DNA from: an uncultured Rhodospirillaceae bacterium
Lineage (GTDB): Bacteria; Pseudomonadota; Alphaproteobacteria; JAEULC01
DNA length: 64,000 bases
NCBI GenBank assembly: GCA_964557415.1
Contig: CAZLBB010000001.1
Span: 3,373 to 67,372, forward strand
Direction: 5' to 3'
A program made the position numbers and the translations under genes. Numbering within the stretch: position 1 is the first letter of the stretch; every line of letters starts with the position of its first letter. Below, in pieces: positions 40,705 to 56,799 of the stretch. A model generated the notes under the pieces. That model saw nothing but the letters and a program-made list of their open reading frames with translations, was not told where the DNA came from and ran no database searches.

Positions 40705-40708
40705 TTCC

Positions 40709-41536: not shown

Positions 41537-41665
41537 GCCGGGTCTCGACGGTCGCGCGCGACCGGGGCCCGTGCGCCGCCACGGCGCGCCCCGCGCTGCT
41601 GCTGCCGTTTTCCCCGATCGATCATGCGCCCCCGCGCCGAAGTTGCGACTCCATAGCAAGGCTGC

Positions 41666-41687: not shown

Positions 41688-41766
41688 GGCATATTGCGGC
41701 ACGCCGTGTAGCCATGATACCAGGGCTGCAAGGCAAGCGCCCATAAGCCGCGCGTCCATACCTCTT

Positions 41767-42852: not shown

Positions 42853-43824
42853 ATGTCGAGCGAAGGCGCCGCGGCCACGCGGCCCGATCCCTCACTGCCA
42901 AGCCTCGTCCAACGCGACGCAAGCCCTTCCATGCGAAGCGTCGGGGCTATGCTGCTGCTCGCCGTCATGTGGGGGCTCTCGATCCCGGTAACGAAGCTCG
43001 GCCTGGTGACAATGCCGCCGTTGACGCTGACGGCGTTGCGGTTCGCGGTCGCCGTGCCACTGCTGTTCCTTTTCGTTGTGGGAAGGCAGCGGCTTCCGTG
43101 GCGGGCCTTCCCGCACGTGGCCGCGCTTGGAATCCTCGGCATTGGCGTAGGCCAGGTCGCGCAAACACTGGGCGTGGTCGGCACGTCGGCATCTGTCGGC
43201 ACCGTCATCTCCGCAACCATTCCGGTCTTCGTCGTCATCTTCGCCGCGCTGCGCCTGAAACAGGCCGTGTCCGGTCGGCAAGCATCGGGGCTGCTGGCAG
43301 CTTTCGTCGGAATCGCGCTGGTCGCGTCTGGAAATGGCGGCGAGGCGGGCACGGCGTCCGAAACCACCGCGGCCGGTGTCGGTCTCATGCTGCTCTCCGC
43401 GCTCGCGGTCGCTTTCTATTACGTCTGGAGCGTCGAACTCACGAACACGTATGGCACCGCCACCGTGGCGGCTTGGAGCACCTTCTTCGGGTTGGCAGTG
43501 TTGTTGCCGTGGGCAGGCTGGGAGATGTGGCGGGTTCCGTTCCACATCACCGCCGAGGCCGTCGGGGCCGCAGTATACCTTGGCGTCGTGGTGACAGCAG
43601 CGGGCCTCTTCGTGTGGCTCCATCTGCTACGCATAGTCCCGGCTCGCACCGCAGCCAGCGTGCAATACCTCCAGCCGATAGTGGGCATCGTCGCTTCATC
43701 TGTGATGTTCGGTGACAGGCTCGGATTTCTCTTCGTTGCCGGAGTGATACTGGTTCTGGCCGGCCTTGCTCTATCCATGGCCTCGCGGCGCAAAGGCGCG
43801 GATGCTCTGCAGGCATCGCCCTAG
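42853..43824 (+). CDS. DMT-superfamily (EamA-like) transporter
   Basis: Ten TM segments with two EamA-like halves. The start could be 42931 (MRSVGAMLLLAV). Confidence 0.75.
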   Translation: MSSEGAAATRPDPSLPSLVQRDASPSMRSVGAMLLLAVMWGLSIPVTKLGLVTMPPLTLTALRFAVAVPLLFLFVVGRQRLPWRAFPHVAALGILGIGVGQVAQTLGVVGTSASVGTVISATIPVFVVIFAALRLKQAVSGRQASGLLAAFVGIALVASGNGGEAGTASETTAAGVGLMLLSALAVAFYYVWSVELTNTYGTATVAAWSTFFGLAVLLPWAGWEMWRVPFHITAEAVGAAVYLGVVVTAAGLFVWLHLLRIVPARTAASVQYLQPIVGIVASSVMFGDRLGFLFVAGVILVLAGLALSMASRRKGADALQASP

Positions 43825-43974: not shown

Positions 43975-44814
43975 ATGCCCCGTCACATCGTCTGCCTGAC
44001 CGTCGACTTCGACGCCATGTCGCCGTTCGTCGCGCGCGGCCTCGTCTCGCCGTCCGCGCTCTCGCGCGGCGAGTTTTCGCTGGTGGGCGCCGACCGCCTG
44101 CTTCGGCTGTTCAATCGCTACGGCGTCCGCTCGACCTGGTTCACGCCCGGCGTCGAGATCGACACCTATCCCGACATGGCGCGCCGGGTGGTCGACGAGG
44201 GCCACGAGATGGCGCATCACGGCTATACGCACCGCCCGCCGAACACGATCGGCCGCGCCGACGAGGAGGCGGAGCTCGTGCGCGGCAACGAGGCGATCGC
44301 CCGGCTGACCGGCCGGCAGGCGCGCGGCTATCGCTCGCCCTCGTGGGAGCTGAGCCCGCACTCGATCGAGCTCCTGCTGCAGCACGGCTTCGGGTACGAC
44401 AGCAGCCTGATGGGTCACGACCATTTGCCCTACTACGCGCGGCAGGGCGACGTCATCGCCCCCGACCGGCCGCCGCGCTTCGGCCGGCCGACGGACCTCG
44501 TCGAGATGCCGATCAGCTGGTCGCTCGACGACTTCCCCCATTTCGAGTACCTGCGCCTTCCCAACAGCCTGCAGCCCGGCCTGATGTCGGCGCGCGCGGT
44601 CATGGACAACTGGCTCGACGACTTCGTCTACATGGTCGAAACCACGGACTGGGGCGTGCTGACCTACACCTTCCATCCCTTCGTCATCGGCCGCGGCCAC
44701 CGCATCATGATGCTCGAGCTGCTGATCCGGCGGATGCAGGAAAGCGAAGCCGTGTTCCTGCGCATGGACGAGGCGGTCGACGAGTTCCGGTCGCGACGCG
44801 CGGCTGCCGCGTGA
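43975..44814 (+). CDS. Polysaccharide deacetylase (NodB-homology) family protein
   Basis: NodB motifs CLTVDFDA (TxDD-like) and HEMAHHGYTH (His-His zinc site). Confidence 0.8.
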   Translation: MPRHIVCLTVDFDAMSPFVARGLVSPSALSRGEFSLVGADRLLRLFNRYGVRSTWFTPGVEIDTYPDMARRVVDEGHEMAHHGYTHRPPNTIGRADEEAELVRGNEAIARLTGRQARGYRSPSWELSPHSIELLLQHGFGYDSSLMGHDHLPYYARQGDVIAPDRPPRFGRPTDLVEMPISWSLDDFPHFEYLRLPNSLQPGLMSARAVMDNWLDDFVYMVETTDWGVLTYTFHPFVIGRGHRIMMLELLIRRMQESEAVFLRMDEAVDEFRSRRAAAA

Positions 44815-45692
44815 GCGCGCCCGCGCCCGCCGGCGACAGCATCGTCCACGGCGTGCTCTGGGCCGTCTTCGCCGTCTTCCTGTTCTCCGCCCTGGGCGCG
44901 CTGGTCAAATGGACCAGCGCCGGCTACGCGGTCACGCAGCTCGCCTTCTTCCGCGCGACCTTCGCGCTGCTGCCGATCCTGCCGCTGCTGCTGGCGGACG
45001 GCCGGGCGTCCTTCGAGCGGCCGACCTGGCTCGGTGGGATGATCCTGCGCGGTGTGATCGGCGTCGCTGGCATGGTGATGGTCTTCTATGGCGTCGCCAA
45101 CCTGCCGCTGGCGGATTCCGTCGCGATCTCCTTCACGGTGCCGCTATGGGTGACGGCACTGGCCGCCCCGTTCCTCGGCGAACGCGTCGGCCTGCGCGGC
45201 TGGATCGCGGTCGCCGCGGGTTTCCTCGGCGTGATGATCATCGCGCCGCCGACCGGACGCTCCGATCTCGTGCCGGCGCTGGTCTGCCTCGTGGGCAACG
45301 GGCTGATCGGCTGCACGCTGATCCTGCTGCGCCGTTTGGGGCGCCATCACCGTACCGCCACGATCGTCTTCTACTACACGGTCGCGCTGATCATCGGCAC
45401 CGCCTGCCTCGCGCCGCTGGACTGGCGTACGCCGGAGACGGGCGACTGGCCGTTTCTTGTCGCGCTCGGCGTGATGGGCGGGTCGGCACACCTGGTGCTG
45501 ACCCAGGCCTACCGCCTGGCGCCGGCGCCGACGGTCGCGACGATCGACTACACCGCGATCTTCTGGGGCGTGCTGTTCGGCTACGCGATTTGGGGCGAAC
45601 GGCCGGGCGTCAATCTCGCGCTCGGCGCAGCGGTCGTGATCGCCAGCGGTCTCTATATCGTGCGCCGACGCCAGCCCGCGCCGGTCGCTTAA
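44811..45692 (+). CDS. DMT-superfamily (EamA-like) transporter, GTG start overlapping the upstream stop
   Basis: GTGA overlap with the deacetylase stop. Hydrophobic EamA-like sequence (VHGVLWAVFAVFLFSALGALVKW...). The ORF-track entry 44343..45692 is over-extended upstream. Confidence 0.7.
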   Translation: MSAPAPAGDSIVHGVLWAVFAVFLFSALGALVKWTSAGYAVTQLAFFRATFALLPILPLLLADGRASFERPTWLGGMILRGVIGVAGMVMVFYGVANLPLADSVAISFTVPLWVTALAAPFLGERVGLRGWIAVAAGFLGVMIIAPPTGRSDLVPALVCLVGNGLIGCTLILLRRLGRHHRTATIVFYYTVALIIGTACLAPLDWRTPETGDWPFLVALGVMGGSAHLVLTQAYRLAPAPTVATIDYTAIFWGVLFGYAIWGERPGVNLALGAAVVIASGLYIVRRRQPAPVA

Positions 45693-46378
45693 GCCTTGCG
45701 CCGGGCGCCGGCCAGCACGATCGGCGGCGCGCGGTCGGGATCAAGGGCGCGCGCGACGTAGCTCGTCATGTGCGGCTCGTAGCCGGTCCATATCCGCCGC
45801 AGTTCCGCGACCGGCCGCTCGTGCCAGTCGACGCGCAGGTCGACCACCGGCCACACCTCGCGGTCGGCCACCTTCAATCCGGCCGCGCGCTCCTCCATGT
45901 ACTCGCCGCCGGCGGCAAGCCCGGCCTCCAGCGCGCGCAGCAGCCGTTCCGCGAGATGGAGCTCCGGCCCGGTCGCCTCGAAGGCTGCGACCATGGCGCG
46001 CGGCACGCCGTCGTTCGCCACGACGTTGCAGCCCGACGCGCAGTCTCTACCTTCGGCGGTCGCACTCACCGGACCGCAGCGCGCGCCGGTGAAACAGGCC
46101 GTGCGCCCGGCGCGATCGATGACCGCAAGCTGACGCCAGGGCGCCTGCGCTCCGGCCGCCGCAACCAGCGCATCGCGCGCCGTCGGCGCGTCGTAGCCGC
46201 GTCCCAGCAGGTCGAGCCCCAGCGATCCCAGGCGCGGATCGGTGATGTGCAGCGTGGCGACGGCGCCGACACCGGCCGCCGCCCAAGCGCAGCGGCTCGC
46301 GACAACGACGGCGGAGGAGGAAAGCGCCACGCCGATCATGCCCGTCCGCGCGCATCGCGCCACCAGCGAAAACGTCAC
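45689..46378 (-). CDS. DUF1028-family protein (Ntn-hydrolase-like fold)
   Basis: ORF 45689..46498 trimmed to a GTG start giving (M)TFSLVARCARTGMIGVALSSS, the typical DUF1028 N-terminus. AGGA lies 10 nt upstream. Confidence 0.65.
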   Translation of the reverse strand: MTFSLVARCARTGMIGVALSSSAVVVASRCAWAAAGVGAVATLHITDPRLGSLGLDLLGRGYDAPTARDALVAAAGAQAPWRQLAVIDRAGRTACFTGARCGPVSATAEGRDCASGCNVVANDGVPRAMVAAFEATGPELHLAERLLRALEAGLAAGGEYMEERAAGLKVADREVWPVVDLRVDWHERPVAELRRIWTGYEPHMTSYVARALDPDRAPPIVLAGARRKA

Positions 46379-46527
46379 GGGTTCATCATCCTGAACGCTC
46401 GCGCCTCGGCCAAAGTCCCGCCCGATCGCATTGACCGCGCTTACAGCATCGTTCAGACTTTCGCAATCGAAGAACGACGCGGCATCGAACGGCCGCACGA
46501 GTCTGTGGGGGTTGGATCGGCGCGGCG

Positions 46528-47688
46528 ATGTTGCAGACGGACGCTGCGGCCGCTCGCACCTCGGTCGACTTGCGGCTCGAGGAGGTGAGCAAGAGTTTCG
46601 GCAGCGTCGCGGCGCTGCGGCCCTCGTCGCTTGCCGTCGAAGCGGGGCTCCTGGTCTCTCTGCTCGGTCCCTCCGGCTGCGGCAAGACGACCACGCTGCG
46701 GCTGATCGCCGGGTTCGAGGCGCCCGATACCGGCCGCATCGTGATCGGAGGCCAGGACGTCGGCGACCTGCCGCCGAACCGGCGGCGGCTCGGCATGGTG
46801 TTCCAGAACTACAGCCTGTTCCCGCACATGACCGTCGGCGAGAACGTCGCCTTCGGCCTGAAGATCGCGGGCATCGGGCGCGACGAGGCGCGCCGCCGCG
46901 TGCGCTCGATCCTGGAGCTGGTGCGGCTGCCCGGTTTCGAGGACCGCTTCGCGCACCAGCTCTCGGGCGGCCAGCAGCAGCGCGTTGCGCTCGCCCGCTC
47001 TCTCATCACCAATCCTTCGGTCCTGCTGCTCGACGAGCCGCTCGGCGCGCTCGACAAGAACCTGCGCGAGAGCATGCAGTTCGAGCTGCGCCGCATCCAG
47101 CAGAGCCTCGGCACCACGACGATCCTGGTGACGCACGACCAGGAGGAAGCTCTGACCATGAGCGATCGCGTCGCCGTCATGAACCACGGGTCGATCCTGC
47201 AATACGGCACGCCGACCGAGGTATACGAGCATCCGCGTACGCGTTTCGTTTCCGAGTTTCTCGGCACCTCCAACCTGTTCCGCGGACACGCGGCGCGCAG
47301 CGCCAACGGCACCGGGCTCCGCCTCGAGGTGGCGCGTGACGGCGCGCCGCCCATCGTGCTGCGGGTCGCGCGCAACGGCGCGGAGCCGAAGCCGGGTGAG
47401 CAAGCGCTGGTCGCGATCCGGCCGGAGAAGATGCGCCTCACCCGCACGGCGCCGGCGGCGCTGGGACGCGAGCTCGACGGCGTGACGGCCAAGGTGATCG
47501 ACTCCGTGTTCCGCGGTACCTACCACGCCTATCAGGTCGGGCTTTCCGGCCGCGGCGACCCTCTGTTCGTCTACCAGCAGGCGATCGACGCCGACGGGCA
47601 GGGCGTGTTCCCGCCCGGCAGCGACGTTCACGTCACCTGGTCGCCGGACAACGTCGTCGCGCTGGCCGACGACGGGGACGCGGCATGA
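46528..47688 (+). CDS. ABC transporter ATP-binding protein (PotA-like)
   Basis: Walker A GPSGCGKTT and LSGGQQQRVALARSL. The stop overlaps the hyuA start (ATGA). Confidence 0.9.
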   Translation: MLQTDAAAARTSVDLRLEEVSKSFGSVAALRPSSLAVEAGLLVSLLGPSGCGKTTTLRLIAGFEAPDTGRIVIGGQDVGDLPPNRRRLGMVFQNYSLFPHMTVGENVAFGLKIAGIGRDEARRRVRSILELVRLPGFEDRFAHQLSGGQQQRVALARSLITNPSVLLLDEPLGALDKNLRESMQFELRRIQQSLGTTTILVTHDQEEALTMSDRVAVMNHGSILQYGTPTEVYEHPRTRFVSEFLGTSNLFRGHAARSANGTGLRLEVARDGAPPIVLRVARNGAEPKPGEQALVAIRPEKMRLTRTAPAALGRELDGVTAKVIDSVFRGTYHAYQVGLSGRGDPLFVYQQAIDADGQGVFPPGSDVHVTWSPDNVVALADDGDAA

Positions 47689-49754
47689 CGGCGGTCGCCG
47701 CGCCAGCGCGCTGCCGCGTCGGCATCGATGTCGGCGGCACCTTCACCGACTTCGTGTTGACGGACACGGGGACCGGCGCGCTGACCTACTTCAAGGAGCC
47801 GAGCGTGCCGTCCGATCCGTCGCTGGCGGTCGAGCGCGGCATGCTGGGTCTGCTCGAGCGCGCCCGGAAAACCCCGGCTCAGGTGGAGCTTGTCGTGCAC
47901 GGCACGACCCTCGGCGTCAACGCGATCATCCAGCGACGCGGCGCGCGCGTCGCGCTGGTCACCAGCCGCGGCAACCGCGACGTGCTGGAGATCGCGCGCT
48001 GCCGCATGCCGTCCTCCTACGACCTGCACGCCGGCAAGGAGGAACCGCTCGTGCCGCGCAACCTGTCGTTCGAGATCGCCGCGCGCGGCCGCGCCGACGG
48101 CTCGGCGGCGCTCGAACCGACCGACGCGGAGATCGCCGCCCTGGCCGAGCGCATCGCGGCGGCGGGGGTGTCGGCTGTCGCAGTGATGCTGCTCAACTCC
48201 TATGCCGATCCCGCGCTGGAGCGCCGCGTCGCCGACGGCCTCGGCGCACGCCTGCCCGGCGTCCTGGTGAGCTGCTCGGCCGAGGTCTGGCCCGAGATCC
48301 GCGAGTACGAACGCGCGCTCGTGGCGACGCTCAATGCCTACATCCATCCGTTGCTGGACCGCTACTACACCACGCTGCGCGAGCGCATGGACCGCATCGG
48401 CGTGCGCGCACCGCTCTACATCACGGCGTCGAACGGCGGTTCGCTCAGCCTCGAGAGCGCACGGGCGCGACCGATCGAGACGGCGATGTCGGGACCGGCC
48501 TCGGGCGTCGTGGCCGCCGCGCGCACCTCCGCCCTGGCGGACCGACCGCGCATCATCACCTTCGACATGGGCGGGACCAGCAGCGACATCGCCGTCTCGG
48601 AGGGCGGCGAGCCGGAATACACGACGCGGACAATGATCGGGGATTTCCCGCTGGTGCTGCCGGTCGTCAACGTGTCCTCGATCGGCGCCGGCGGCGGTTC
48701 GCTGGTGTGGGTCGATCCCCAGGGCGTGCTGAAGGTCGGGCCCGACAGCGCCGGCGCCGATCCCGGGCCGATCTGCTACCGGCGCGGCGGCACGCAGCCG
48801 ACCGTGACCGATTGCTACGTCGCGACCGGCATCATCGACCCGGCGGCGTTCCTCGGCGGGCGCATGACACTCGACCGCGACGCGGCCGTCGCCGCGCTCG
48901 ACCGCGTCGCCGGGGCGATCGGCGTCGAGGGACCTGACGCGGCAGCCCGCGCGGCCGAGTCGGCGCTGGCCGTCGCCACGGCCCGCATGGCGACCGAGCT
49001 GTTCAAGGGACTGGCGCAGCGCGGGCTCGATCCGCGCCGCTTCGCGCTCGTGCCGTTCGGCGGCGCCGGACCGACGCACAGCAACCTGTTGGCGGAAGAG
49101 GCGCGCCTCGACACGATCGTCGTGCCGCCTGCGCCCGGCACGTTCTGCGCCATGGGCGCCATCCTCGCCGACATCAAGCGCGACTACGTGCGCACCGTGC
49201 GGAGCCGCCTGGACGCCGGCCTCGCGCGCCGGCTTTGCGAGCTGTTCGGCGAGCTGGCGGCGGAGGCGCGCGCCTGGCTCGACCACGAGGGCGATATCGT
49301 CGGCGCCACCCGCATGCGCTACGGCGCCGACATGCGCTACGCCGGCCAGGCCTACGAACTGCCGGTCGTGCTGCCGGCGATGACGGGTGAGGTCGATGCC
49401 GCGGCGATCGCCGAACTGTTCCACGAGGCGCACGAGCGGGTCTACGGGTTCCGCGACGCCGCCAGTCCGATCGAGATCACCACGATCCGGCTCGGCATCG
49501 CCGGCAAGGTGCCGCCGGTCGCAGCGCCCCGCCGCGCGCCGACCGCCGGCGCGCCCGAGCCGCATGGCCGGCGCCGGGTGTTCCGCCGCGGCGGCTGGGT
49601 CGAGGCCCGGGTCTATCGCCGCACGGCGCTTGCTCCCGGGGCGACGTTCGCCGGCCCGGCGCTGGTCGAGCAGGAAGACACCACGACCTGGGTCCTGCCG
49701 GGGTGGCGGGCGAAGGTCGATGACGCCGACAACATCCACATCACGCGCGATTGA
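47685..49754 (+). CDS. hyuA: Hydantoinase/oxoprolinase A-subunit family (HyuA-like)
   Basis: N-terminus RVGIDVGGTFTDFVL. 689-aa HyuA-family sequence. Confidence 0.9.
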   Translation: MTAVAAPARCRVGIDVGGTFTDFVLTDTGTGALTYFKEPSVPSDPSLAVERGMLGLLERARKTPAQVELVVHGTTLGVNAIIQRRGARVALVTSRGNRDVLEIARCRMPSSYDLHAGKEEPLVPRNLSFEIAARGRADGSAALEPTDAEIAALAERIAAAGVSAVAVMLLNSYADPALERRVADGLGARLPGVLVSCSAEVWPEIREYERALVATLNAYIHPLLDRYYTTLRERMDRIGVRAPLYITASNGGSLSLESARARPIETAMSGPASGVVAAARTSALADRPRIITFDMGGTSSDIAVSEGGEPEYTTRTMIGDFPLVLPVVNVSSIGAGGGSLVWVDPQGVLKVGPDSAGADPGPICYRRGGTQPTVTDCYVATGIIDPAAFLGGRMTLDRDAAVAALDRVAGAIGVEGPDAAARAAESALAVATARMATELFKGLAQRGLDPRRFALVPFGGAGPTHSNLLAEEARLDTIVVPPAPGTFCAMGAILADIKRDYVRTVRSRLDAGLARRLCELFGELAAEARAWLDHEGDIVGATRMRYGADMRYAGQAYELPVVLPAMTGEVDAAAIAELFHEAHERVYGFRDAASPIEITTIRLGIAGKVPPVAAPRRAPTAGAPEPHGRRRVFRRGGWVEARVYRRTALAPGATFAGPALVEQEDTTTWVLPGWRAKVDDADNIHITRD

Positions 49755-49773
49755 GCGAGAAGCGGTGACAACG

Positions 49774-51792
49774 ATGCGAACCGACCCGGTGCTGCTGGAG
49801 ATCCTCTCCAACAAGGCCATCGCGACGGCCGAGGAGATGGGCTACGCGCTGCAGCGCACCGGCCGCACGCTGTACGTGAAGGAGACGGCGGACTTCGGCA
49901 CCGCGCTGGTCAAGCCCGACGGCAAGTTCTTCGCCTATCCGGCCGCGATCGGCGTGTCCGGCTTCATCGACCTGGATTGCGGTCCCTCCATCCGCGCCGT
50001 CAAGGAGCTCGCGCCGGGCGACGTGATCATCACCAACCACCCATACGCCTCGGAGGGCCTCGCGACGCACACGCCGGACGTGCACCTGATCCAGCCCTAT
50101 TTCCACCAGGGGCGGATCGTCTGCTACGGCTGGTCCTTCATCCATATCAGCGACGTCGGCGGCGCCGTTCCGTCGAGCATCTCGCCGCGCAGCCGCGAAG
50201 TGTACCAGGAAGGATTCCTGATCCCGCCGATGAAGCTGCGCCGCGGCAGCGAGCTGAATCCGGACTTCCTGACCTTGTTCCTCGCGAACTGCCGCACGCC
50301 CGAAACCAATCTCGGCGACATCCGCGCGATGCTCGCCGCCCTCGAGGTCGGCCGGCGCCGCGTCGACGAGATGATCGGGCAGCACGGGCTCGACGTGTTC
50401 CTGCAGGCCCAGGAGGACATCGTCGTCTACACCGCGCGCCGGGCGCGCGACGCGCTGCGCCGTCTGGCCGACGGGCGCTACGAGTTCTGGGACTATCTCG
50501 ACGACGACCTCGCCACGGGCATCCCCTTGCGCGTGCGCGTAGCGGTGACCATCCGCGACGGCGAGGCCCAGGTCGACTACACCGGCACCGATCCGCAGGT
50601 GATGGCTGCCTACAATATTCCCACGGGCGGCAAGCGGCATCCGTGGCTCACGCTCAAGCTCGTGCATTTCGTCTGCACGATGGATCGCGGCATCCCGCTG
50701 AACGAGGGCCTGTTCCATCCCGTGCACGTGACCGCGCCCAGCGGCAGCATCGTGAACCCCGAGTTCCCGGCCGCCACCGGCGTCCGGCACGCGGCCGCCA
50801 TCAGGGTCAACGACGCCTTGAACGGCGCGCTCGCCAAGGCGGCCCCGGACATCGTGCCGGCCTGCAACGGCGGCGTCACCATTCCCGTGGTGCTGGCCGA
50901 GGCGACCGGCGCCACCGGCCAGCGCAACGTGATCGTGATCGAGCCGATGATCGGCGGCATGGGCGCGCGCAAGGGCCATGACGGCGTCGACGGGCGCGAC
51001 AGCAGCATCTCCAACCTGGCGAACAACCCGCTGGAGACGGTCGAAGCCGACGCCGCCATCGAGGTGCTCGACTACGCCGTGCGGCCCGATTCCGGCGGCG
51101 CCGGGCAATGGCGCGGCGGCAACGGTCTCGTGCTGACCTTCCGCGTGCTGAGCGAGGGCGCGTCGATCCTGGGCCGCGGCATGGAGCGCTTCCGCTTCCA
51201 GCCCTATGGCGTCGCCGGCGGCCAGCCTGGGGCGCCGGCGCGCACGGTGCTCGACATGGGCCGTCCCGGCGAGCGCGAGCTCGGCAAGATCGACATGCTG
51301 GACCTGAAGGCGGGTGACGTGGTGACGGTGATGACACCCGGCGGCGGCGGCTGGGGCGATCCGCTCGAGCGCGATCCGCAGGCGGTAGTGGCCGACGTGT
51401 CGCGCGGCTTCGTCAGCGCCGAGGCAGCGGCCCGAGTCTATGGCGTGGTCATCCGCGAGGAACGCCTCGACGCGGCCGCGACCCAGGCCCGCCGCCACGC
51501 CGTGCCCGCGCGGCCGGCCGAGGCCTTCTCCTTCGGACCGGAGCGGACGGCGTGGGAGCGCGTATTCGACGACCGGCGCGCCGTCGCGCTGAATGCGGCG
51601 CTCGAGCCGTTGCCGGTGGCGCAGCGGCAGCACGAGCGCCGCCGCGCGATCCTGGCGGTGGTGCCGGAACTGGCGGACGACCCGAAGGCTGTCCTTGCGG
51701 AAGCCTTGCGCGACGCCGCCGCGCGGGAACGGCGGCTCGATGCCGAGCTCGCGCGGCTCGGCGCCGCGCGGATCGGCCGCGCGGCGGAATAG
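49774..51792 (+). CDS. hyuB: Hydantoinase B/oxoprolinase family (HyuB-like)
   Basis: ORF 49387..51792 trimmed to MRTDPVLLEILSNKAIATAEEMGYALQRTG, the typical HyuB N-terminus. Confidence 0.9.
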   Translation: MRTDPVLLEILSNKAIATAEEMGYALQRTGRTLYVKETADFGTALVKPDGKFFAYPAAIGVSGFIDLDCGPSIRAVKELAPGDVIITNHPYASEGLATHTPDVHLIQPYFHQGRIVCYGWSFIHISDVGGAVPSSISPRSREVYQEGFLIPPMKLRRGSELNPDFLTLFLANCRTPETNLGDIRAMLAALEVGRRRVDEMIGQHGLDVFLQAQEDIVVYTARRARDALRRLADGRYEFWDYLDDDLATGIPLRVRVAVTIRDGEAQVDYTGTDPQVMAAYNIPTGGKRHPWLTLKLVHFVCTMDRGIPLNEGLFHPVHVTAPSGSIVNPEFPAATGVRHAAAIRVNDALNGALAKAAPDIVPACNGGVTIPVVLAEATGATGQRNVIVIEPMIGGMGARKGHDGVDGRDSSISNLANNPLETVEADAAIEVLDYAVRPDSGGAGQWRGGNGLVLTFRVLSEGASILGRGMERFRFQPYGVAGGQPGAPARTVLDMGRPGERELGKIDMLDLKAGDVVTVMTPGGGGWGDPLERDPQAVVADVSRGFVSAEAAARVYGVVIREERLDAAATQARRHAVPARPAEAFSFGPERTAWERVFDDRRAVALNAALEPLPVAQRQHERRRAILAVVPELADDPKAVLAEALRDAAARERRLDAELARLGAARIGRAAE

Positions 51793-51830
51793 CAACCCGT
51801 CCCAAGGGGACGACAACAAGGGAGAGCGAC

Positions 51831-52898
51831 ATGGAGACGATGGACAGAATGCGGCGACGCCGCTTCTTGCAGGCGATGGCGGCGGCCAGCGCAGCGGTGT
51901 GCATGCCGCTGGGCGGCCGGAATGCGTTCGGCCAGGGTCAGACGCTGACGGTCACGTCCTACGGCGGCATCTGGGAAAAAGCGATCAAGGAGTGCTTCGT
52001 CGCCGACTTCGAGAAGAAGAACCCCGGCGCGAAGGCCAACATCGTGCTCGGTGGGCCGGCGCAGTGGATGGGGCAGGTCGAGGCCAACCAGGCCAACCCG
52101 CCGATCCATGCCATCATGAACACCGTCGGCCTGTCCCTGATCGCCGGCCGCAAGGGCCTGGTCGAGAAGATCTCGGCCGAGAAGGTGCCGAACCTGAAGG
52201 ACGTGCCGCCCAGGTTCGCCGAGGTCGCCGATTGGTGGGGCGCCTGCTTCGACTACGGTTCGTTCGGCATCGCCTACCACCGCGACCGCGTCAAGAACCC
52301 GCCGAAGAGCTTCGCCGAGTTCATCGATCGTACGGCGAAGGGCGAATGGATGGCCGGCCTGCCGACCATCTCCTACCCGTCGACCGAGCAGATCCTGATC
52401 TGGTCCTTCTCCGACATCCTCGGCGGCGGCGTCGACAACATCGACCCGTTCTTCAAGGCGGCCGACCGCATGAAGAAGAATATCCTGTGGTGGGCCAGCG
52501 TCACGGACTTCCTGAACCAGCTCGACAGCGGCGAGATCGACATCGGCATGTACTGGGACGGCCGCACCTGGGCGCACTACGACAGCGGCGCCAAGCACAT
52601 CGCCTACGTCAATCCGAAGGAAGGCGGCGTCATGAACCCCGTCGTCGTCCAGAAGCCGAAGAACGCGCCCGAGCTGGCGTGGAAGTACATCGACTCCATG
52701 TTCGCGCCCGAGCCGCAGGCGAAGTTCGCCGAGATGCTCAATTACGGCGTCACCAACAGCAAGGTCGTCTTCAACGAAAAGCTCAAGGAGCGCATCACGC
52801 CCTGGGAGCAGACGCGCTGGCCGCCGTTCGAGAAGATCGCCGAGAAGCTGCCGGAATGGACCGAGCGGTGGAACAAGGAAATCGGCAAGAAGGGCTGA
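51831..52898 (+). CDS. ABC transporter periplasmic binding protein (family 1, PotD-like)
   Basis: ORF trimmed to METMDRMRRRRFLQAMAAASAAVCMPLGG, a Tat signal. AAGGGAGAG SD upstream. Confidence 0.85.
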   Translation: METMDRMRRRRFLQAMAAASAAVCMPLGGRNAFGQGQTLTVTSYGGIWEKAIKECFVADFEKKNPGAKANIVLGGPAQWMGQVEANQANPPIHAIMNTVGLSLIAGRKGLVEKISAEKVPNLKDVPPRFAEVADWWGACFDYGSFGIAYHRDRVKNPPKSFAEFIDRTAKGEWMAGLPTISYPSTEQILIWSFSDILGGGVDNIDPFFKAADRMKKNILWWASVTDFLNQLDSGEIDIGMYWDGRTWAHYDSGAKHIAYVNPKEGGVMNPVVVQKPKNAPELAWKYIDSMFAPEPQAKFAEMLNYGVTNSKVVFNEKLKERITPWEQTRWPPFEKIAEKLPEWTERWNKEIGKKG

Positions 52899-52956
52899 CG
52901 CGAGGGAGCGGGCGGCAAGCAGCCTCTTGCCGCCCGCGCCCTCGAAGGGTCCGAAC

Positions 52957-53856
52957 ATGACCGCCGCCGTCGCCGCACCCGCCGCATCGGCGCCCGCGCG
53001 CCGCCGCAAGGCGCATTCCGGCGCGTTGTCGATCTGGTGGGTGCTGCCGGCGGTCCTGTTCCTGATCGTTTTCTACATCTTCCCCATCGCACAGAACGGC
53101 TATCGCGGCTTCTATCCCGAGTTCGCCGGCGCGGGTCTTGCGTTCAACCTCCAGGCCTATGCCAAGCTGCTGGGCGATTCCTTCTACCTGGGCGTCATCT
53201 TCGACACGTTCTGGCTGAGCGCGCTCGTGACACTGATCTGCCTGGCGATCGGCTATCCGGTCGCCTACTTCCTGGTGCGCTATTCCGGCCGATGGAGCGG
53301 CCTCATCATCTTCCTGCTGATCGCCCCGCTCCTGACCTCGATCATCATGCGCACCTACGGCTGGCGCGTGCTGCTGGCCCGGCGCGGCCTCGTCAACAAT
53401 CTTCTACTCGACCAGCTCGGCTGGATCGATGCGCCGCTCCGGCTCGTCAACACGCAGGGCTCCGCTGTCGTCGGGCTCGTGCATGTGCTGGTCCCGTTCA
53501 TGGTGCTGGCGATCGCCTCGGTGCTGCAGGGCATCGACACGCGCCTTGAGGAATCGGCGCGCATCCTGGGCGCCAACCGGTGGCAGACCTTCCTGCGCGT
53601 GACGCTGCCGCTCAGCCTCGACGGCATCGGCACCGGGGCGATCATGGTGTTCATGATCGCCAACGGCAGCTTCGTCACCCTGCTGCTGATCGGCGGCGAC
53701 AGCTTCCGCACCCTGCCCCTGCTGATCTACCAGCAGTTCAACACGACGCGCGACTTCGGCTTCGCGGCGGCGATGGGCAACCTGCTGCTGCTGTCGGCGG
53801 TGGGATGCCTATACCTGCAGCTTCGGCTCATACGACGGCGCGGGGTCAAGGGCTGA
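52957..53856 (+). CDS. ABC transporter permease (PotB-like)
   Basis: 6-TM permease with an EAA loop (EESARILGANRWQTFLRVTLP). The start could be 52927 or 52957. Confidence 0.8.
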   Translation: MTAAVAAPAASAPARRRKAHSGALSIWWVLPAVLFLIVFYIFPIAQNGYRGFYPEFAGAGLAFNLQAYAKLLGDSFYLGVIFDTFWLSALVTLICLAIGYPVAYFLVRYSGRWSGLIIFLLIAPLLTSIIMRTYGWRVLLARRGLVNNLLLDQLGWIDAPLRLVNTQGSAVVGLVHVLVPFMVLAIASVLQGIDTRLEESARILGANRWQTFLRVTLPLSLDGIGTGAIMVFMIANGSFVTLLLIGGDSFRTLPLLIYQQFNTTRDFGFAAAMGNLLLLSAVGCLYLQLRLIRRRGVKG

Positions 53857-54671
53857 TGCGCCTGTGGCGCCGGTTCAAGCGCAATCCCGAGGCGCCGGTG
53901 CTGGGCGCCTTCGTGGTCCTGTTCTTCGCTTTCATGCTGGCGCCGATCCTCATCGTCGTGATCGTCGCCTTCAACGACGCCAACTTCATCGCCTTCCCCT
54001 TGCGCGGCTACTCGCTGCGCTGGTTCTATCGGATCGTCGAATACAGGCCATTCCTCGACTCCTTCATCGTCAGCCTGGAGCTCGCCTTTGCCTCGACCCT
54101 CGTGGCGTGCCTGCTTGGCGTGCCGGCGTCGCTGGCGCTGGTACGCGGGCGGTCGCGCTACGCCAACGCGGTCGCAACCTTTCTGTTGTCGCCGCTCGCG
54201 ATGCCGCTGATCGTGCTCGGCCTCGCCTTCCTGTTCTACCTCTCGGCGCTCGGCCTCGGCGTCTCGTTCCTGTCGCTGCTCATCTCGCACACGGTGGTCG
54301 GCCTGCCCTACATCATGCGCACCGTCGCCGGCGTCTACCGCGGCGTCTCGTCGGATTTCGAGGAGACCGCCTCGATCCTGGGGGCGAACCGGCTGCAGAC
54401 CTTCTGGTACGTCACCCTGCCCCTGATCCGGCCCGGCATCTTCGCCGGCGCGCTGTTCTCGATTCTCATCTCGTTCGACAACCTGCCGATCTCGTTCTTC
54501 TTCGGCAGCGCCGAGACCAACACGCTGCCGGTCGTGATGCTGAGCTACATCGAGCACCAGTTCGACCCCTCGATCGCGGCGCTCAGCGCCGTGCAGATGC
54601 TGCTGGCCGTGTTCGCTCTGCTGGTGGTCGAGCGCATCTACGGCCTCAAGCACATGAGCGCGCCGACCTGA
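53856..54671 (+). CDS. ABC transporter permease (PotC-like)
   Basis: ORF 53580..54671 trimmed to MRLWRRFKRNPEAPVLGAF. The start overlaps the upstream stop (TGATG). EAA loop EETASILGANRLQTFWYVTLP. Confidence 0.8.
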   Translation: MRLWRRFKRNPEAPVLGAFVVLFFAFMLAPILIVVIVAFNDANFIAFPLRGYSLRWFYRIVEYRPFLDSFIVSLELAFASTLVACLLGVPASLALVRGRSRYANAVATFLLSPLAMPLIVLGLAFLFYLSALGLGVSFLSLLISHTVVGLPYIMRTVAGVYRGVSSDFEETASILGANRLQTFWYVTLPLIRPGIFAGALFSILISFDNLPISFFFGSAETNTLPVVMLSYIEHQFDPSIAALSAVQMLLAVFALLVVERIYGLKHMSAPT

Positions 54672-54697
54672 CCACGGCGCCGGCCCAGAGGAGCCCC

Positions 54698-55870
54698 ATG
54701 CAGGACTTTGCGAATTCGCGCCTGTTCTCGCCCTTCACGCTGGGCGGCGTCACGCTGCCCAACCGCATCGTCATCGCACCGATGCAGATGTACGAGGCCG
54801 AGGACGGCTTCGCGAACGACTGGCACCTGGCGCATCTCGGCCGCTTTGCCATCGCGCGCGCCGGCCTCGTGTTCACGGAAGTGCTTTGCGTCGAGCCGCG
54901 CGGCCGCAGCACGTACCGCGACTGCGGCATCTGGAAGGACGAGCACATCGCGCCGCTCGCCCGCGTCGCCGCGCTGCTCAGGCGCTGCGGCTCGGTGCCG
55001 GGCGCGCAGATCGGGCATTGCGGGCCCAAGGCGGCGCGCCAGAAGCCGTGGGACGGATTGAGGCCGCTGGGACCCGAGGACGCGGTGCGCGGCGAGCCGC
55101 CCTGGACGCCGGTCGCGAGCACCGCCGAGCCGTCTGCCGATGGCTATCACGTGCCCGCCGCCTTGACGCTCGCCGAGATCGCTGCCGTGGTCGACATGTT
55201 CGGCCAGGGCGCGCGGCGGGTCGCGGCGGCGGGCTTCGACGTGCTCGACATCCACGCGGCGCACGGCTACCTGATCCACAGCTTCCTTTCGCCGATCGCC
55301 AACAAGCGGAGCGACGCCTATGGCGGCGACCGGCAGGGGCGCATGCGCTTCGCCCTCGAAATCGCCGAGGCGGTGCGCGCGCATTTCCCGCGGCCCAAGC
55401 CCATCCTGTTCCGGCTGTCCTGCATCGACCGCGTCGATTCCGGCTGGGACATGGCGGACACGCTGGTCCTTGCGGCCGAGTTGAGGGCCCGCGGCATCGA
55501 TGCGATCGACTGCTCCTCGGGCGGCATCCGCGGCGCGAACTCGCTCGCCGTGTTCGACAAGATCGGCGGACCGCCGCCCGGCTACCAGGTTCCGTTCGCC
55601 GCCGAGATCCGCGGCAAGCTGGGCATGCCGACCATGGCCGTCGGCCTGATCACCGAGCCCACGCACGCGGAGGACATCCTGGCGCAGGGCCAGGCCGACC
55701 TCGTCGCCATCGGGCGCGAGGCGCTCTACGACCCGAACTGGCCCCTTCACGCCGCGATCGCGCTCGCCGGCAAGCGCGACAACCAGCGCCAGTTCGGGTA
55801 TTGGCCGCCCAACTACGGCTGGTGGCTGCAGTACCGCGAGAAGCAGCAGGCGCGTCGGCCGGCGGGGTAG
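54698..55870 (+). CDS. NADH:flavin oxidoreductase (Old Yellow Enzyme family)
   Basis: ORF 53864..55870 trimmed to MQDFANSRLFSPFTLGGVTLPNRIVIAPM, the typical OYE N-terminus. AGAGGAG SD upstream. Confidence 0.85.
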   Translation: MQDFANSRLFSPFTLGGVTLPNRIVIAPMQMYEAEDGFANDWHLAHLGRFAIARAGLVFTEVLCVEPRGRSTYRDCGIWKDEHIAPLARVAALLRRCGSVPGAQIGHCGPKAARQKPWDGLRPLGPEDAVRGEPPWTPVASTAEPSADGYHVPAALTLAEIAAVVDMFGQGARRVAAAGFDVLDIHAAHGYLIHSFLSPIANKRSDAYGGDRQGRMRFALEIAEAVRAHFPRPKPILFRLSCIDRVDSGWDMADTLVLAAELRARGIDAIDCSSGGIRGANSLAVFDKIGGPPPGYQVPFAAEIRGKLGMPTMAVGLITEPTHAEDILAQGQADLVAIGREALYDPNWPLHAAIALAGKRDNQRQFGYWPPNYGWWLQYREKQQARRPAG

Positions 55871-55887: not shown

Positions 55888-56256
55888 CTAGTCGAACCGC
55901 AGCACCGACCTGCCGACCCAGCCCGGCAGCTGGTCCGGGCGCGCGGGCGCGAAGAGCTCGTAGTAGACGCAGCCTTGCGGCCCCACGCCGACGGCGGCGT
56001 GGCGGCTGCCCGGCGGGAAGAAGACGAGGTCGCCGGGCATCGCCTCGACGGTCCTGTCGTCGATCTTCAGGGTGATGCTGCCCGAGACCACGATCAGCAT
56101 CTGTTCGTTGTCGTGCCAATGGGTCTTGCCGTCGAACTTCGCGTCGGGCGTCGTGGAGACCAGGACCGCCGACATCTTGTCGCCGCACACGCCGCGGCGG
56201 GTCGATCCCGCGCGCATGCCCGCGACGACCGGGATTTTTTGCCAATCGATCAGCAT
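55888..56256 (-). CDS. Cupin-2 domain small protein
   Basis: ORF 55888..56673 trimmed to MLIDWQKIPVVAG. Cupin core HWHDNEQMLIVVSGSITL...GDLVFFPPGSRHA. Confidence 0.65.
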   Translation of the reverse strand: MLIDWQKIPVVAGMRAGSTRRGVCGDKMSAVLVSTTPDAKFDGKTHWHDNEQMLIVVSGSITLKIDDRTVEAMPGDLVFFPPGSRHAAVGVGPQGCVYYELFAPARPDQLPGWVGRSVLRFD

Positions 56257-56289
56257 CCGTTTTGTCTCCCTGTTGCATGTCACCGCTGC

Positions 56290-56530
56290 GTTCGTCACGT
56301 AAGGTGAAGGGGACGGTGGTGGACGAAGCGACGATCGCCGCCAAGCGCCCGTTTGCTTCCTCCGAGCGCTTGCGTTCGGTGACGTCCAGGGCGACGCCGC
56401 GGATCCAGCGCGAACGGCCATCGGCGTCCCGCGCGACGATGCCGCGCCGGTGCAGCCAGCGCAGCTCGCCGCTCGGCCAGACGACGCGGCATTCCTGCTC
56501 GAAGTGTTGGATCTCGCCGCGGCGCGCCGT
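56290..56530 (-). pseudogene. Remnant of a PAS/PAC sensor gene (PAC motif plus start of a following PAS domain)
   Basis: Minus-strand translation gives EIQHFEQECRVVWPSGELRWLHRRGIVARDADGRSRWIRGVALDVTERKRSEEANGRLAAIVASSTTVPF. This is a textbook PAC box plus linker and the onset of a next PAS domain (AIVxSS). It begins right after an in-frame stop and runs into the cupin gene, with no PAS core upstream and no kinase domain downstream. Confidence 0.5.
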
Positions 56531-56799
56531 TCATGGATGTCGATGCTCCTGGCGACATAGCCGGCGCGTCGCCCCGCCCCGGGGAGTCGCGACCTTCCCC
56601 GCTGCCTCGCTTCCCCCGCTCGGATCTGCTGCACCCGATCTCCTCCCGGCCCTCCCGGCCGGGCCTTATGCACGGCACAGTAGACCGGCTATGCCGGCGA
56701 AGATAGCACCGCCGCGCCCGATCGATACCGCCCGCGCCTTGACGCGGGGCAGCGCCCCCTTTCAAGCTGGCCCGCGCAAGAGCGAGGGAGGAAAAGGCG

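Follow-up and report, generated by a model that had tools for sequence, protein, structure and literature searches.

Within a 64,000-nucleotide stretch of DNA from an uncultured alphaproteobacterium (the window), seven plus-strand genes at 46528-55870 form an operon-like unit, in which the amidase pair HyuA-HyuB is embedded in an ABC importer and followed by an OYE-family reductase. The importer and the HyuAB pair recur together in many other bacteria as a conserved cassette, and on balance it is somewhat likely that the unit imports a small, polar ring compound (a cyclic amide, hydantoin or imide), opens its ring in an ATP-dependent reaction and adds an ene-reduction step. The genes encode a PotA-like ABC ATPase, HyuA, HyuB, a Tat-signal binding protein (SBP), two permeases and the OYE reductase, in this order, and neighbouring genes overlap or are separated by no more than 58 nt (Table 1). 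The HyuA start and the ATPase stop share an ATGA overlap, and the two permease genes share 1 nt at their junction. The gene order and coordinates, claimed previously in a sequence-only reading, were borne out by GC3 frame analysis, Pfam and NCBIfam and by an identical public contig, where independent gene calls gave the same CDS lengths (672, 355, 299, 271, and 390 aa).

Table 1. Features of the seven-gene unit and its flanks (window positions).
Feature	Position	Strand	Basis or remark
DMT/EamA gene	42853-43824		Pfam
CE4 "polysaccharide deacetylase"-family hydrolase	43975-44814	+	Pfam
DMT/EamA permease	44811-45692	+	Pfam
DUF1028 protein	45689-46378	-	Pfam DUF1028, 8.8e-59 over 229 aa
Divergent intergenic region, DUF1028 (-)/ABC ATPase (+), 149 bp	46379-46527	.	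Candidate promoter/operator region
ABC importer ATPase, PotA-type, C-terminal TOBE_2 domain	46528-47688	+	Pfam, NCBIfam
HyuA, ATP-binding (ASKHA-type) subunit of ATP-dependent ring-opening amidase	47685-49754	+	Pfam, NCBIfam, PDB
HyuB, catalytic subunit, 672 aa	49774-51792	+	Pfam, Zn-ligand alignment
Periplasmic SBP, twin-arginine signal	51831-52898	+	Pfam
Strong RNA hairpin, SBP/permease-1 junction	52901-52944	+	Folding
ABC permease 1, PotB-like	52957-53856	+	Pfam BPD_transp_1, NCBIfam
ABC permease 2, PotC-like	53856-54671	+	Pfam BPD_transp_1, NCBIfam
OYE-family FMN ene-reductase	54698-55870	+	Pfam, PDB
Small cupin gene, convergent	55888-56256	-	17 nt after OYE, closes the unit

The earlier assignment of HyuA and HyuB to the ATP-dependent hydantoinase/oxoprolinase/caprolactamase family was confirmed over their full length, HyuA matching Hydant_A_N, Hydantoinase_A, and Hydant_A_C and HyuB matching Hydantoinase_B (4e-145) in Pfam. 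The metal site of HyuB is intact, as D40, H99, D102, and H124 align with D41, H99, D102, and H124, the Zn ligands of CapB (PMC8453981). The top PDB matches of HyuA are 7hk5 (402 bits) and 6yra_A (381 bits), while HyuB is 30-37% identical to caprolactamase (CapB, 30%), the solved relative 7hk5 named N-methylhydantoinase (33%), and the HyuB of the Ti-plasmid noc region. In the tree HyuB groups apart, in a clade of 79 members (bootstrap 100), and when set against the characterised enzymes the pair clusters neither with caprolactamase nor with the only solved N-methylhydantoinase. No member of this clade is substrate-assigned, and no NCBIfam equivalog cutoff was reached (HyuA 486 against CapA and HyuB 228 against CapB, both cutoffs being 1000).

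The proteins of the clade are about 90 residues longer; in HyuB the alignments to CapB and 7hk5 stop at residue 575-576 and are followed by a conserved C-terminal extension of about 95 residues. Such an extension could be taken as a sign of an ATP-dependent carboxylase of the acetone/acetophenone carboxylase type, which belongs to the same superfamily and the corresponding subunits of which carry extra C-terminal arms (PMC8453981). A carboxylase is nevertheless extremely improbable here, since carboxylases give only 246 and 225 bits with HyuA, against 402 and 381 bits for the lactamase/hydantoinase enzymes, and 91 and 60 bits with HyuB, against 259 and 194 bits. Moreover, the operon contains no gamma-subunit gene, and a dedicated ABC importer of high affinity points to a polar solute and not a membrane-permeant ketone.

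The importer ATPase (Pfam ABC_tran 2.7e-37, TOBE_2 1.2e-12) scores 361.6 in the NCBIfam potA subfamily (cutoff 355.6) and possesses Walker A GPSGCGKT (47-54), the signature LSGGQ (145), and Walker B VLLLDE (165). Permease 1 gives 174.6 bits with NCBIfam PotB, below the equivalog cutoff, and permease 2 gives 131.7 bits with PotC. The SBP carries the twin-arginine motif MRRRRFLQ and matches Pfam SBP_bac_8, SBP_bac_6, and SBP_bac_1; its identification as PotD was rejected (30 bits against an NCBIfam cutoff of 582). Its closest solved relative is 3pu5 (128 bits), the deposited name of which gives no ligand, and weaker matches include 4eq7 (polyamine-annotated ABC binding protein), 6dgv (GABA-sensor scaffold), 6hly (agropine binder), and 5l9g (MotA binder).

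Ten or more further genomes or plasmids carry the order ATPase-HyuA-HyuB-SBP-permease-permease. Each of the six proteins is 47-69% identical there, and every same-order cassette has an SBP orthologue (47-53% identity). The order occurs in the genome loci L001, L002, L004, L017, and L058 and on plasmids of Agrobacterium (A. leguminum, A. tumefaciens), Neorhizobium, Paroceanicella, and Roseomonas; the carriers include MAGs and cultured bacteria, among the latter A. tumefaciens CFBP5877 and Paroceanicella profunda D4M1. Permuted orders are ATPase-HyuB-P-P-SBP-HyuA in L010, L020, and L026 (P, permease), with overlapping gene ends in L010, and HyuA-HyuB-SBP-ATPase-P-P in Pantoea. The cassettes with an SBP orthologue are dispersed through the 79-member HyuB clade. 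The sequence-only reading regarded HyuAB as inserted into an importer operon, while the recurring six-gene order indicates a conserved mobile cassette instead of a local insertion. Its proposal that the embedding implies uptake followed by ring opening was strengthened, because such a sequence of events is strongly favoured by an association that spans four bacterial orders and three gene-order permutations. HyuAB is not bound to the importer, as the 80% relative L003 contains EamA-HyuA-HyuB without ABC genes, its EamA orthologue (76% identity) lying directly upstream of HyuAB.

The seven genes are presumably co-transcribed. A consensus scan of the operon revealed no internal sigma-70 match and no internal terminator. 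The region 52890-52960 after the SBP gene folds at -47.9 kcal/mol (z = -6.1); this hairpin was not called in the terminator scan and has no U-tract, so it does not amount to an internal terminator of the kind that the sequence-only reading named among its grounds for refutation. L001 and L002 likewise have a hairpin between the SBP and permease genes, with a different sequence. The element is probably an mRNA-stabilising or attenuating one rather than a full terminator, and it could partly uncouple the downstream genes. In the DUF1028-ATPase intergenic region, a candidate promoter/operator, a block at about 46424-46487 is near-identical in L001 (one mismatch), while its flanks are more variable. 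Within the block lie a TTGACC motif and, at 46446-46454 and 46472-46480, the two arms of an inverted repeat, GCATCGTTC/GAACGACGC, and the intergenic region has no sigma-70 consensus match.

The adjacent DUF1028 and DMT exporter genes noted in the sequence-only reading are present, but the former lies on the minus strand, divergent from the ATPase gene, and the latter proved to be two DMT/EamA genes with a CE4 gene between them. The true start of the DUF1028 gene is a GTG at 46378, where the 94% relative L001 has ATG. The sole solved relative of its product is a hypothetical protein (2imh), and among the related loci the gene is kept only in L001, the closest relative; an accessory amidase is a possible role. 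The CE4 gene, the product of which resembles HpPgdA (3qbu, 182 bits), is translationally coupled to the following EamA permease gene via a GTGA overlap, and CE4 homologues are close to related HyuB genes in L071, L023, L082, and L086; the pair at 43975-45692 is probable accessory context. A gamma-glutamyltranspeptidase gene is located 12 kb upstream.

The OYE (Pfam Oxidored_FMN 8.9e-63) belongs to the YqjM or "thermophilic-like" class, with 7o0t (336 bits), 5ocs, 3hf3, and YqjM (1z41) as best PDB matches and the motif HAAHGY at residue 186. The ene-reductase link proposed in the sequence-only reading was upheld in part. Eleven OYE homologues (58-71% identity) were sampled, and 5 of them have a HyuA/HyuB pair within 8 kb, directly adjacent and divergent in three cases, although this sample is small and the host genomes are rich in HyuAB paralogues. 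Same-clade HyuAB genes adjoin the homologue in L085 (71%), L089 (62%), and L019 (60%), and other HyuAB clades lie near it in L086, L087, and L093. On the other side, the gene is absent in the 86% relative L002, where an M24 peptidase follows permease 2, and in all plasmid cassettes examined, where a DAO-family flavoenzyme follows instead; seen from HyuB, a close OYE occurs at 3 of 76 genome loci. These absences, the unrelated contexts of the other 6 homologues, and the size of this widespread subfamily (>100 matches at 57-65% identity) would suit a passenger: an ene-reductase for general detoxification or stress, which came to lie downstream of a functional importer-HyuAB cassette in this lineage. 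Such an origin is possible but doubtful, as only a few percent of the homologues are expected near HyuAB by chance (authors' estimate), the OYE and HyuB gene ends overlap in L019, and in the window the OYE gene follows permease 2 after 26 nt with a good ribosome-binding site (AGAGGAG) and no terminator. The OYE-HyuAB link therefore looks real.

According to the favoured reading of import, ring opening and ene-reduction, the Tat-exported SBP and the PotABC-type importer would take up a small polar N-heterocycle (lactam, hydantoin/ureide, or cyclic imide), and cytoplasmic HyuA/HyuB would spend ATP on hydrolysing the stable ring amide, HyuA providing ATP activation and HyuB Zn-site hydrolysis by analogy with caprolactamase, 5-oxoprolinase, and N-methylhydantoinase. 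The OYE may saturate an activated C=C in the ring before opening ("reduce then open", as in the reductive pyrimidine pathway) or, alternatively, may reduce an unsaturated carbonyl product afterwards. The ATP-dependent hydrolysis, the transport direction, and the role and place of the OYE step are inferred. OYEs are generally poor at reducing simple unsaturated lactams, which makes the OYE-catalysed step uncertain.

At a handful of loci, amidohydrolases or peptidases from several families are found in the vicinity of related HyuAB pairs: L002 has Peptidase_M24, L087 Creatinase_N with Peptidase_M24, L086 Amidohydro_1 with CE4, L077 and L081 M81 and amidohydrolase, and Pantoea an M20-type dipeptidase. 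They hint that the opened product retains an amide or carbamoyl bond, in which case a hydantoin, ureide, imide, or peptide-like ring would be favoured over a simple lactam. They would also agree with a hydantoin, N-methylhydantoin, or creatinine-type route, in which HyuAB yields an N-carbamoyl amino acid and the carbamoyl group is then stripped by a hydrolase encoded nearby (DUF1028 or CE4, or in relatives M20/M24/amidohydrolase), as would the name of 7hk5 and the DAO-family enzyme that follows several cassettes, its family including sarcosine oxidase. This route is unlikely, because the identity of HyuB to 7hk5 is only 33%, the accessory hydrolases vary by locus, the scanned neighbours include neither creatinine deaminase nor isochorismatase-type N-carbamoylsarcosine amidase, and the OYE has no place in it.

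Scavenging of 5-oxoproline (pyroglutamate) or of a simple lactam (2-pyrrolidone, valerolactam, 6-oxopipecolate), giving an ordinary amino acid that needs no special downstream enzymes, is quite improbable. The HyuAB family takes in 5-oxoprolinases and lactamases (PMC8453981). The polyamine, GABA, and opine annotations among the weak SBP relatives and the upstream gamma-glutamyltranspeptidase gene are compatible with it, and the accessory genes differ widely among cassettes, as if the product entered central metabolism directly. However, both Cap scores and the identity to CapB are low, and the recurrent OYE, DAO, and amidohydrolase partners are left unexplained. In addition, the bacterial housekeeping 5-oxoprolinase is reportedly PxpABC, a different family (Niehaus et al. 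2017). Growth of C. glutamicum on 5-oxoproline needs pxpTABC (PMC13274462).

The sequence-only reading considered the layout undescribed, and this is right only in part. No published description was found of the OYE-HyuAB pairing or of the 79-member HyuB clade, but the cassette is present with generic annotation in many public genomes. An nmpAB and nmpC cluster is known from N-methylpyrrolidone degradation (PMC6987047), and HyuAB genes beside ABC importers are known from opine-lactam catabolism on Ti plasmids (PMC6733357), with HyuAB located beside an opine ABC importer in pTiC58.

The ATPase-HyuA-HyuB-SBP-permease-permease cassette (HyuA and HyuB, subunits of a ring-opening amidase; SBP, substrate-binding protein) is real and conserved: it joins an ATP-dependent ring-opening amidase to a dedicated importer and a recurrent ene-reductase partner, and no new mechanism is demanded by it. 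The gene map of the ~69% GC window was obtained from third-position GC by frame together with Pfam and NCBIfam searches, the raw ORF lists being rich in artefacts. Among these are the long Arg/Ala/Ser-rich N-terminal parts of a 269-aa "DUF1028" ORF and a 261-aa "cupin" ORF, which are products of the high GC content, the real proteins being ~229 aa and ~122 aa long. In the window the cassette is followed by the gene of an OYE (Old Yellow Enzyme-family FMN ene-reductase), and all seven-gene junctions are overlaps or gaps of at most 58 nt: an ATGA overlap connects the ATPase gene and hyuA, 19 nt separate hyuA from hyuB and 38 nt hyuB from the SBP gene, a 58-nt gap with a hairpin inside lies between the SBP and first permease genes, the two permease genes overlap by 1 nt, and the OYE gene is preceded by a 26-nt gap containing its ribosome-binding site AGAGGAG. 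The CDS lengths match independent calls on the identical public contig. The map, the tight junctions, the public CDS calls and the intact ATPase and OYE motifs confirm the seven genes described in the sequence-only reading.

Coordinates of features in the window and in related loci of other genomes (L numbers)
Feature	Locus	Position	Strand	Basis
PotA-type ABC ATPase	window	46528-47688	+	Pfam, NCBIfam
HyuA	window	47685-49754	+	Pfam, NCBIfam
HyuB	window	49774-51792	+	Pfam, NCBIfam
HyuB C-terminal extension (residues 577-672)	window	51502-51792		
SBP	window	51831-52898	+	Pfam, NCBIfam
Permease (first)	window	52957-53856	+	Pfam, NCBIfam
Permease (second)	window	53856-54671	+	Pfam, NCBIfam
OYE reductase	window	54698-55870	+	Pfam, NCBIfam
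"Cupin" ORF, 261 aa	window	55888-56673	-	
"DUF1028" ORF, 269 aa	window	45689-46498	-	
DUF1028/ATPase intergenic block	window	46424-46487		
CE4-family gene	window	43975-44814	+	
First EamA/DMT gene	window	42853-43824	+	
Second PotABCD-like ABC operon	window	37386-41731	-	
Sortilin/Vps10-type gene	window	34103-37369	-	
Gamma-glutamyltranspeptidase gene	window	32228-34000	-	
Four-rhodanese gene	window	7992-10319	+	
DAO-family gene	L077	14463-15752		
DAO-family gene	L081	13448-14740		
DAO-family gene	L082	12658-13950		
DAO-family gene	L085	5362-7853		
DAO-family gene	L089	4414-5706		
CE4-family gene	L071	~6008-6844		
CE4-family gene	L082	2341-3255		
CE4-family gene	L086	882-1799		
Permuted cassette	L010	6915-16868		

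A consensus scan for promoters and terminators gave no match inside the putative operon, the scan being uninformative in a 70% GC alphaproteobacterium, where the sigma-70 search returned zero matches and terminator matches stayed at chance level. The hairpin at the SBP/permease junction (-47.9 kcal/mol, z = -6.1) is without a U-tract and was not called by the terminator scan; L001 and L002, the loci of relatives with 94% and 86% identity, each have a hairpin here too, but with another sequence. Hairpins after SBP genes are common in ABC operons, where they stabilise or attenuate the mRNA, and by this analogy the window hairpin is read as a putative mRNA-stabilising or attenuating element.

The adjacency of a DUF1028 gene, claimed earlier, holds in that the gene neighbours the operon, but it lies on the minus strand and diverges from it; the GTG at 46378, replaced by ATG in L001, is its correct start codon. 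Between DUF1028 and the ATPase gene a block of ~60 nt has one mismatch against L001, while the adjacent 20 nt have diverged. With its TTGACC motif and the inverted repeat GCATCGTTC(N17)GAACGACGC, this block is a candidate promoter/operator. The GntR gene at 41767 was considered as a possible regulator of the HyuAB operon, but it could just as well control the divergent upstream ABC operon, and the regulators vary among cassettes (LacI, GntR, LysR, XRE-cupin).

As for the adjacent DMT exporter, the upstream plus strand carries GntR, an EamA gene (DMT permease), a gene of the CE4 ("polysaccharide deacetylase") family and a second EamA gene, the last two being coupled by a GTGA overlap; on the 3' side of the OYE gene there is a convergent cupin gene of 122 aa. 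The first EamA/DMT gene has a third-position GC of ~0.77 against ~0.92 in its neighbours and is missing from L001, in which GntR is directly followed by the CE4 gene, and judged from these features it looks like a recent insertion. The gene of a 1088-aa protein with Sortilin/Vps10-type repeats adjoins both the second PotABCD-like ABC operon and a gamma-glutamyltranspeptidase gene. Elsewhere in the window a tripartite tricarboxylate transporter (TctC/TctA) cluster is located upstream of the gene of a 775-aa protein with four rhodanese domains.

The assignment of both amidase subunits is based on near full-length Pfam matches: HyuA comprises Hydant_A_N (2e-42), Hydantoinase_A (ASKHA ATPase; 8e-84) and Hydant_A_C (2e-16), and HyuB covers profile positions 1-519 of 519 of PF02538 (Hydantoinase_B; 4e-145). 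Window HyuB residues D40, H99, D102, and H124 align with D41, H99, D102, and H124 of the caprolactamase subunit CapB, which are its Zn ligands (PMC8453981). The best-ranked solved relatives are the fused N-methylhydantoinase 7hk5 and caprolactamase 6yra, and acetone/acetophenone carboxylases score far lower; at the level of HyuB the identity is 30% to CapB, 33% to 7hk5 and 37% to the HyuB of the pTiC58 noc region. Robust clustering with 5-oxoprolinase housekeeping clades would have told against the sequence-only reading; for the three references in the bootstrapped NJ tree, no clustering with a characterised clade is seen: CapB, 7hk5 and pTiC58 HyuB all fall outside the 79-sequence clade (bootstrap 100) that contains window HyuB and through which the cassettes with SBP orthologues are dispersed. 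The members of this clade share a C-terminal extension of ~90-95 residues with the motif AWERVFDD, which is missing in CapB and looks helical by composition. The carboxylase counterparts of HyuB have extra C-terminal arms, which serve in binding of a third subunit or extend the dimer interface (PMC8453981).

Several known identities were considered and fit poorly. Caprolactamase is disfavoured by the NF050156/NF050157 scores, 485.8 and 227.6 bits where both cutoffs are 1000, and by the position of HyuB outside the CapB clade, and acetone/acetophenone carboxylase by the lack of a third-subunit (gamma) gene and by Apc equivalog scores of 107-255 bits against cutoffs of 1250-1500. For 5-oxoprolinase, either the fused OPLAH of ~1250-1290 aa or PxpABC, the subunits here are separate genes and the locus is a transporter operon; being sporadic, partly plasmid-borne and embedded among transporter genes, HyuAB does not have the distribution of a housekeeping gene. 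None of the NCBIfam equivalog cutoffs was reached by HyuA, HyuB, SBP, OYE, DUF1028, or cupin.

In a separate set of loci (L036, L039, L043, L028, L040, and L059), HyuB paralogues sharing 46-53% identity with window HyuB stand in tandem, two or three in a row, with either no HyuA or one HyuA nearby, which is odd for an obligate two-subunit enzyme. These loci are MAGs, mostly of marine Rhodospirillales, L059 being an Acidobacteria MAG.

The components of an importer are present as an ATPase, two BPD_transp_1 permeases (PotB- and PotC-like) and a periplasmic SBP. The ATPase belongs to the potA subfamily (361.6 against a cutoff of 355.6), with intact Walker A, Walker B, and LSGGQ signature and a TOBE domain, and the SBP carries a twin-arginine (Tat) signal. 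A PotD polyamine importer was rejected, the SBP scoring 30 bits against the PotD cutoff of 582 and only 26.6 bits with 1poy and 1pot. Its nearest solved relative is 3pu5 (128 bits), deposited as an extracellular solute-binding protein with no ligand given; weaker matches are a polyamine-annotated ABC binding protein, a GABA-sensor scaffold and opine binders, and according to these weak solved relatives the solute may loosely be amine- or amino-acid-like.

Cassette conservation was followed by a HyuB scan of one genome per species, which gave 76 loci, and by tblastn with all window proteins. The ATPase-HyuA-HyuB-SBP-permease-permease order was found in five of the 76: L001, L002 (contig beginning within hyuA), L004 (contig beginning at hyuB), L017 (Burkholderiales) and L058. 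The same six-gene order is carried by plasmids of cultured bacteria, namely Agrobacterium leguminum AT13, Neorhizobium sp. NCHU2750, Paroceanicella profunda D4M1, A. tumefaciens CFBP5877, and Roseomonas marmotae 1318, each of the six proteins being 47-69% identical to that of the window. Among plasmids, SBP orthologues with at least 49% identity were found in 11 records only, which are exactly the cassette carriers, and a search of Sinorhizobium plasmids for the SBP orthologue found none. Two permutations were also met, ATPase-HyuB-permease-permease-SBP-HyuA in Phaeobacter (L010, L020, L026; gene ends overlap in L010) and HyuA-HyuB-SBP-ATPase-permease-permease in Pantoea. The earlier idea that HyuAB was inserted into an importer operon does not survive this conserved synteny across relatives, plasmids and permutations, which rules out a local insertion; since the same order and its permutations recur in other loci and on plasmids, the unit is, as judged from gene order, a conserved and horizontally mobile cassette. 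The importer-HyuAB coupling is not obligatory, because L003, the locus of an 80% relative, consists of EamA-HyuA-HyuB with no ABC genes.

In the Phaeobacter permutation three genes, those of both permeases and of the SBP, stand between hyuB and hyuA. A DHDPS-family gene precedes the cassette in L010 and L026, its end overlapping the ATPase start; a divergent XRE-cupin regulator is found in L010, and an ORF of ~200 aa occupies a similar position in L026.

The OYE matches PF00724 over its full length (8.9e-63) and scores 236-336 bits with solved YqjM-like members (7o0t, 5ocs, 3hf3, 1z41), of which 7o0t gives 336 bits and 1z41 237 bits against ~113 for classical PETN reductase; HAAHGY is located at residue 186. 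By these scores its class is assigned as YqjM/"thermophilic-like", with the differences that it remains below the NamA equivalog cutoff (290 against 431) and apparently has APMQMY where YqjM would carry Cys26.

The claimed partnership of the OYE with the cassette was approached from both sides. Viewed from HyuAB, L001 alone has the OYE behind its cassette; L002 has an M24 peptidase there, and the OYE is absent from every plasmid cassette, in which a DAO-family flavoenzyme usually follows; the only other OYE genes near HyuAB among the 76 loci are those of L019 (hyuA-hyuB-OYE, 60%, overlapping gene ends) and L058 (upstream, 49%). From the OYE side, 11 homologues with 58-71% identity were picked by rank and contig size, blind to context, and a HyuA/HyuB pair was located within 8 kb in five of them, the remaining six being in unrelated contexts. 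In L085 the OYE (71%) is the immediate divergent neighbour of a HyuAB pair of the same clade, and two DAO genes follow; in L089 (62%) it diverges from HyuA-DAO-HyuB of the same clade, and in L093 from a HyuAB pair of another clade; in L087 it stands two genes from the HyuAB pair, beside a creatinase-like M24; and in L086 it is accompanied by CE4, an amidohydrolase and a TRAP transporter. By our own estimate a few percent would be expected by chance, even at ten HyuAB pairs per genome, and the association is therefore probably real in this small sample (n=11). The partnership thus stands as a recurrent association, but not as a constant one, being missing in L002 and in all plasmid cassettes.

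The DAO-family FAD oxidoreductase is the commonest accessory partner of the HyuAB clade and often comes right after permease 2; in L089 it is located between hyuA and hyuB. CE4-family genes lie near HyuB or OYE in unrelated loci, including, besides those with coordinates in the table, L023. The window CE4 protein resembles HpPgdA (3qbu, 182 bits) and, more distantly, PuuE allantoinase, and it could act in the same pathways by hydrolysing rings or amides. Hydrolases near some related HyuAB pairs comprise CE4, DUF1028, M20, M24, M81, and Amidohydro_1, which may hint that the ring-opened product often still holds an amide or carbamoyl bond; in that case a hydantoin-, ureide-, imide- or peptide-like ring would be a more probable substrate than a simple lactam.

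From these data we infer a scheme in which the SBP and the importer would take up a small polar cyclic amide, cytoplasmic HyuAB would open the ring at the expense of ATP, and the OYE would saturate an activated C=C, either in the still intact ring or, once this is open, in an unsaturated carbonyl product. It seems rather unlikely that the OYE and the long-HyuB HyuAB constitute a pathway of a kind not yet described, "reduce then ATP-dependently open", whose substrate would be an unsaturated N-heterocycle abundant in nature, with the window pair fused to its own importer; candidates in such a case include maleimide-type products of tetrapyrrole breakdown, rings like those of pyridones or pyrimidines, and dehydro-lactams. 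Elsewhere OYE/HyuAB pairs occur together with TRAP or MFS transporters, with DAO oxidases and with various amidohydrolases. More speculatively, the interleaving of enzyme and transporter genes, including the hyuB-hyuA split by three transporter genes, might mean that importer and enzyme form a physical complex through which the substrate is channelled.

To our knowledge, HyuAB-type enzymes are the sole biological means known of hydrolysing, under mild conditions, N-methylhydantoin and the very stable lactams with 5- to 7-membered rings. Interest in them also comes from biocatalysis and the recycling of nylon monomers (PMC8453981, PMC11033972). Substrates are known for only a handful of them, while alphaproteobacterial and marine genomes are rich in paralogues. 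The conserved cassette offers a handle on a large uncharacterised HyuAB clade through a screenable SBP and cultured carriers suitable for genetics, and the recurrent ene-reductase partner narrows the possible chemistry. Identification of the substrate would give a function to the 79-member HyuB clade sampled and possibly a new route of N-heterocycle degradation; should it be pyroglutamate or a simple hydantoin, the finding would be ordinary.

Among known systems, the polyamine importers PotABCD/PotFGHI resemble the window importer as four-component type I importers, with the window ATPase at the potA cutoff and permeases that are PotB/PotC-like, but the window SBP is not PotD/PotF and has a Tat signal, and two enzyme genes break the order. 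CapAB of Pseudomonas jessenii (6yra) and OplBA of P. putida are likewise two-subunit HyuA/HyuB enzymes, and with the CapB Zn ligands kept, window HyuAB is expected by analogy to work like CapAB, by ATP-dependent lactam hydrolysis; the differences are the 30% HyuB identity, a window HyuB that is ~90 residues longer, and genes interleaved with an ABC importer. In P. jessenii, the proteins proposed to take up caprolactam were singled out by their induction alone (PMC6061476).

On Ti plasmids (pTiC58 noc; pTiEU6 succinamopine) HyuAB pairs are located beside an ABC importer and flavin oxidoreductases and were proposed, by inference only, to open lactam opines (PMC6733357). The pTiC58 layout was confirmed directly, and its HyuB is of the "long" type (651 aa), but the 37% identity, the other clade and the absence of an OYE on the Ti plasmid separate it from the window, and its importer NocPTQM is of the polar-amino-acid type in a separate, oppositely oriented operon, whereas the window importer is interleaved. 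The layout called undescribed in the sequence-only reading is therefore known as far as HyuAB beside ABC importers is concerned, but its interleaved version was not found in the literature: the search gave no paper on the interleaved cassette, the 79-member HyuB clade, or the OYE-HyuAB pairing, and nothing directly relevant on DUF1028 function or on diketopiperazine hydrolysis by the HyuAB family, a sponge-symbiont paper only noting hyuA/hyuB enrichment.

The DAO oxidases around related HyuAB pairs appear to echo the nmpAB/nmpC logic of the Alicycliphilus N-methylpyrrolidone cluster nmpABCDEF, in which HyuAB-type nmpA/nmpB occur with the amino-acid oxidase nmpC (PMC6987047). The likeness is one of gene content, DAO genes being found after same-order cassettes (Agrobacterium, Roseomonas) and beside HyuAB in L085 and L089, and the window differs in having an OYE in place of the DAO gene and its own ABC importer. 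In the original nmp study, lactam opening by NmpAB reportedly yields an amine, which the oxidase then cleaves. Finally, reductive pyrimidine catabolism proceeds from dihydropyrimidine dehydrogenase through dihydropyrimidinase to beta-ureidopropionase. Its enzyme families are unrelated to those of the window, and its dihydropyrimidinase is a metal amidohydrolase with no need of ATP, but its logic, with saturation of the ring C=C by a flavoenzyme, ring opening by a "hydantoinase" and a last step left to an amidohydrolase, would fit OYE, HyuAB and the neighbouring hydrolases as a functional analogy.
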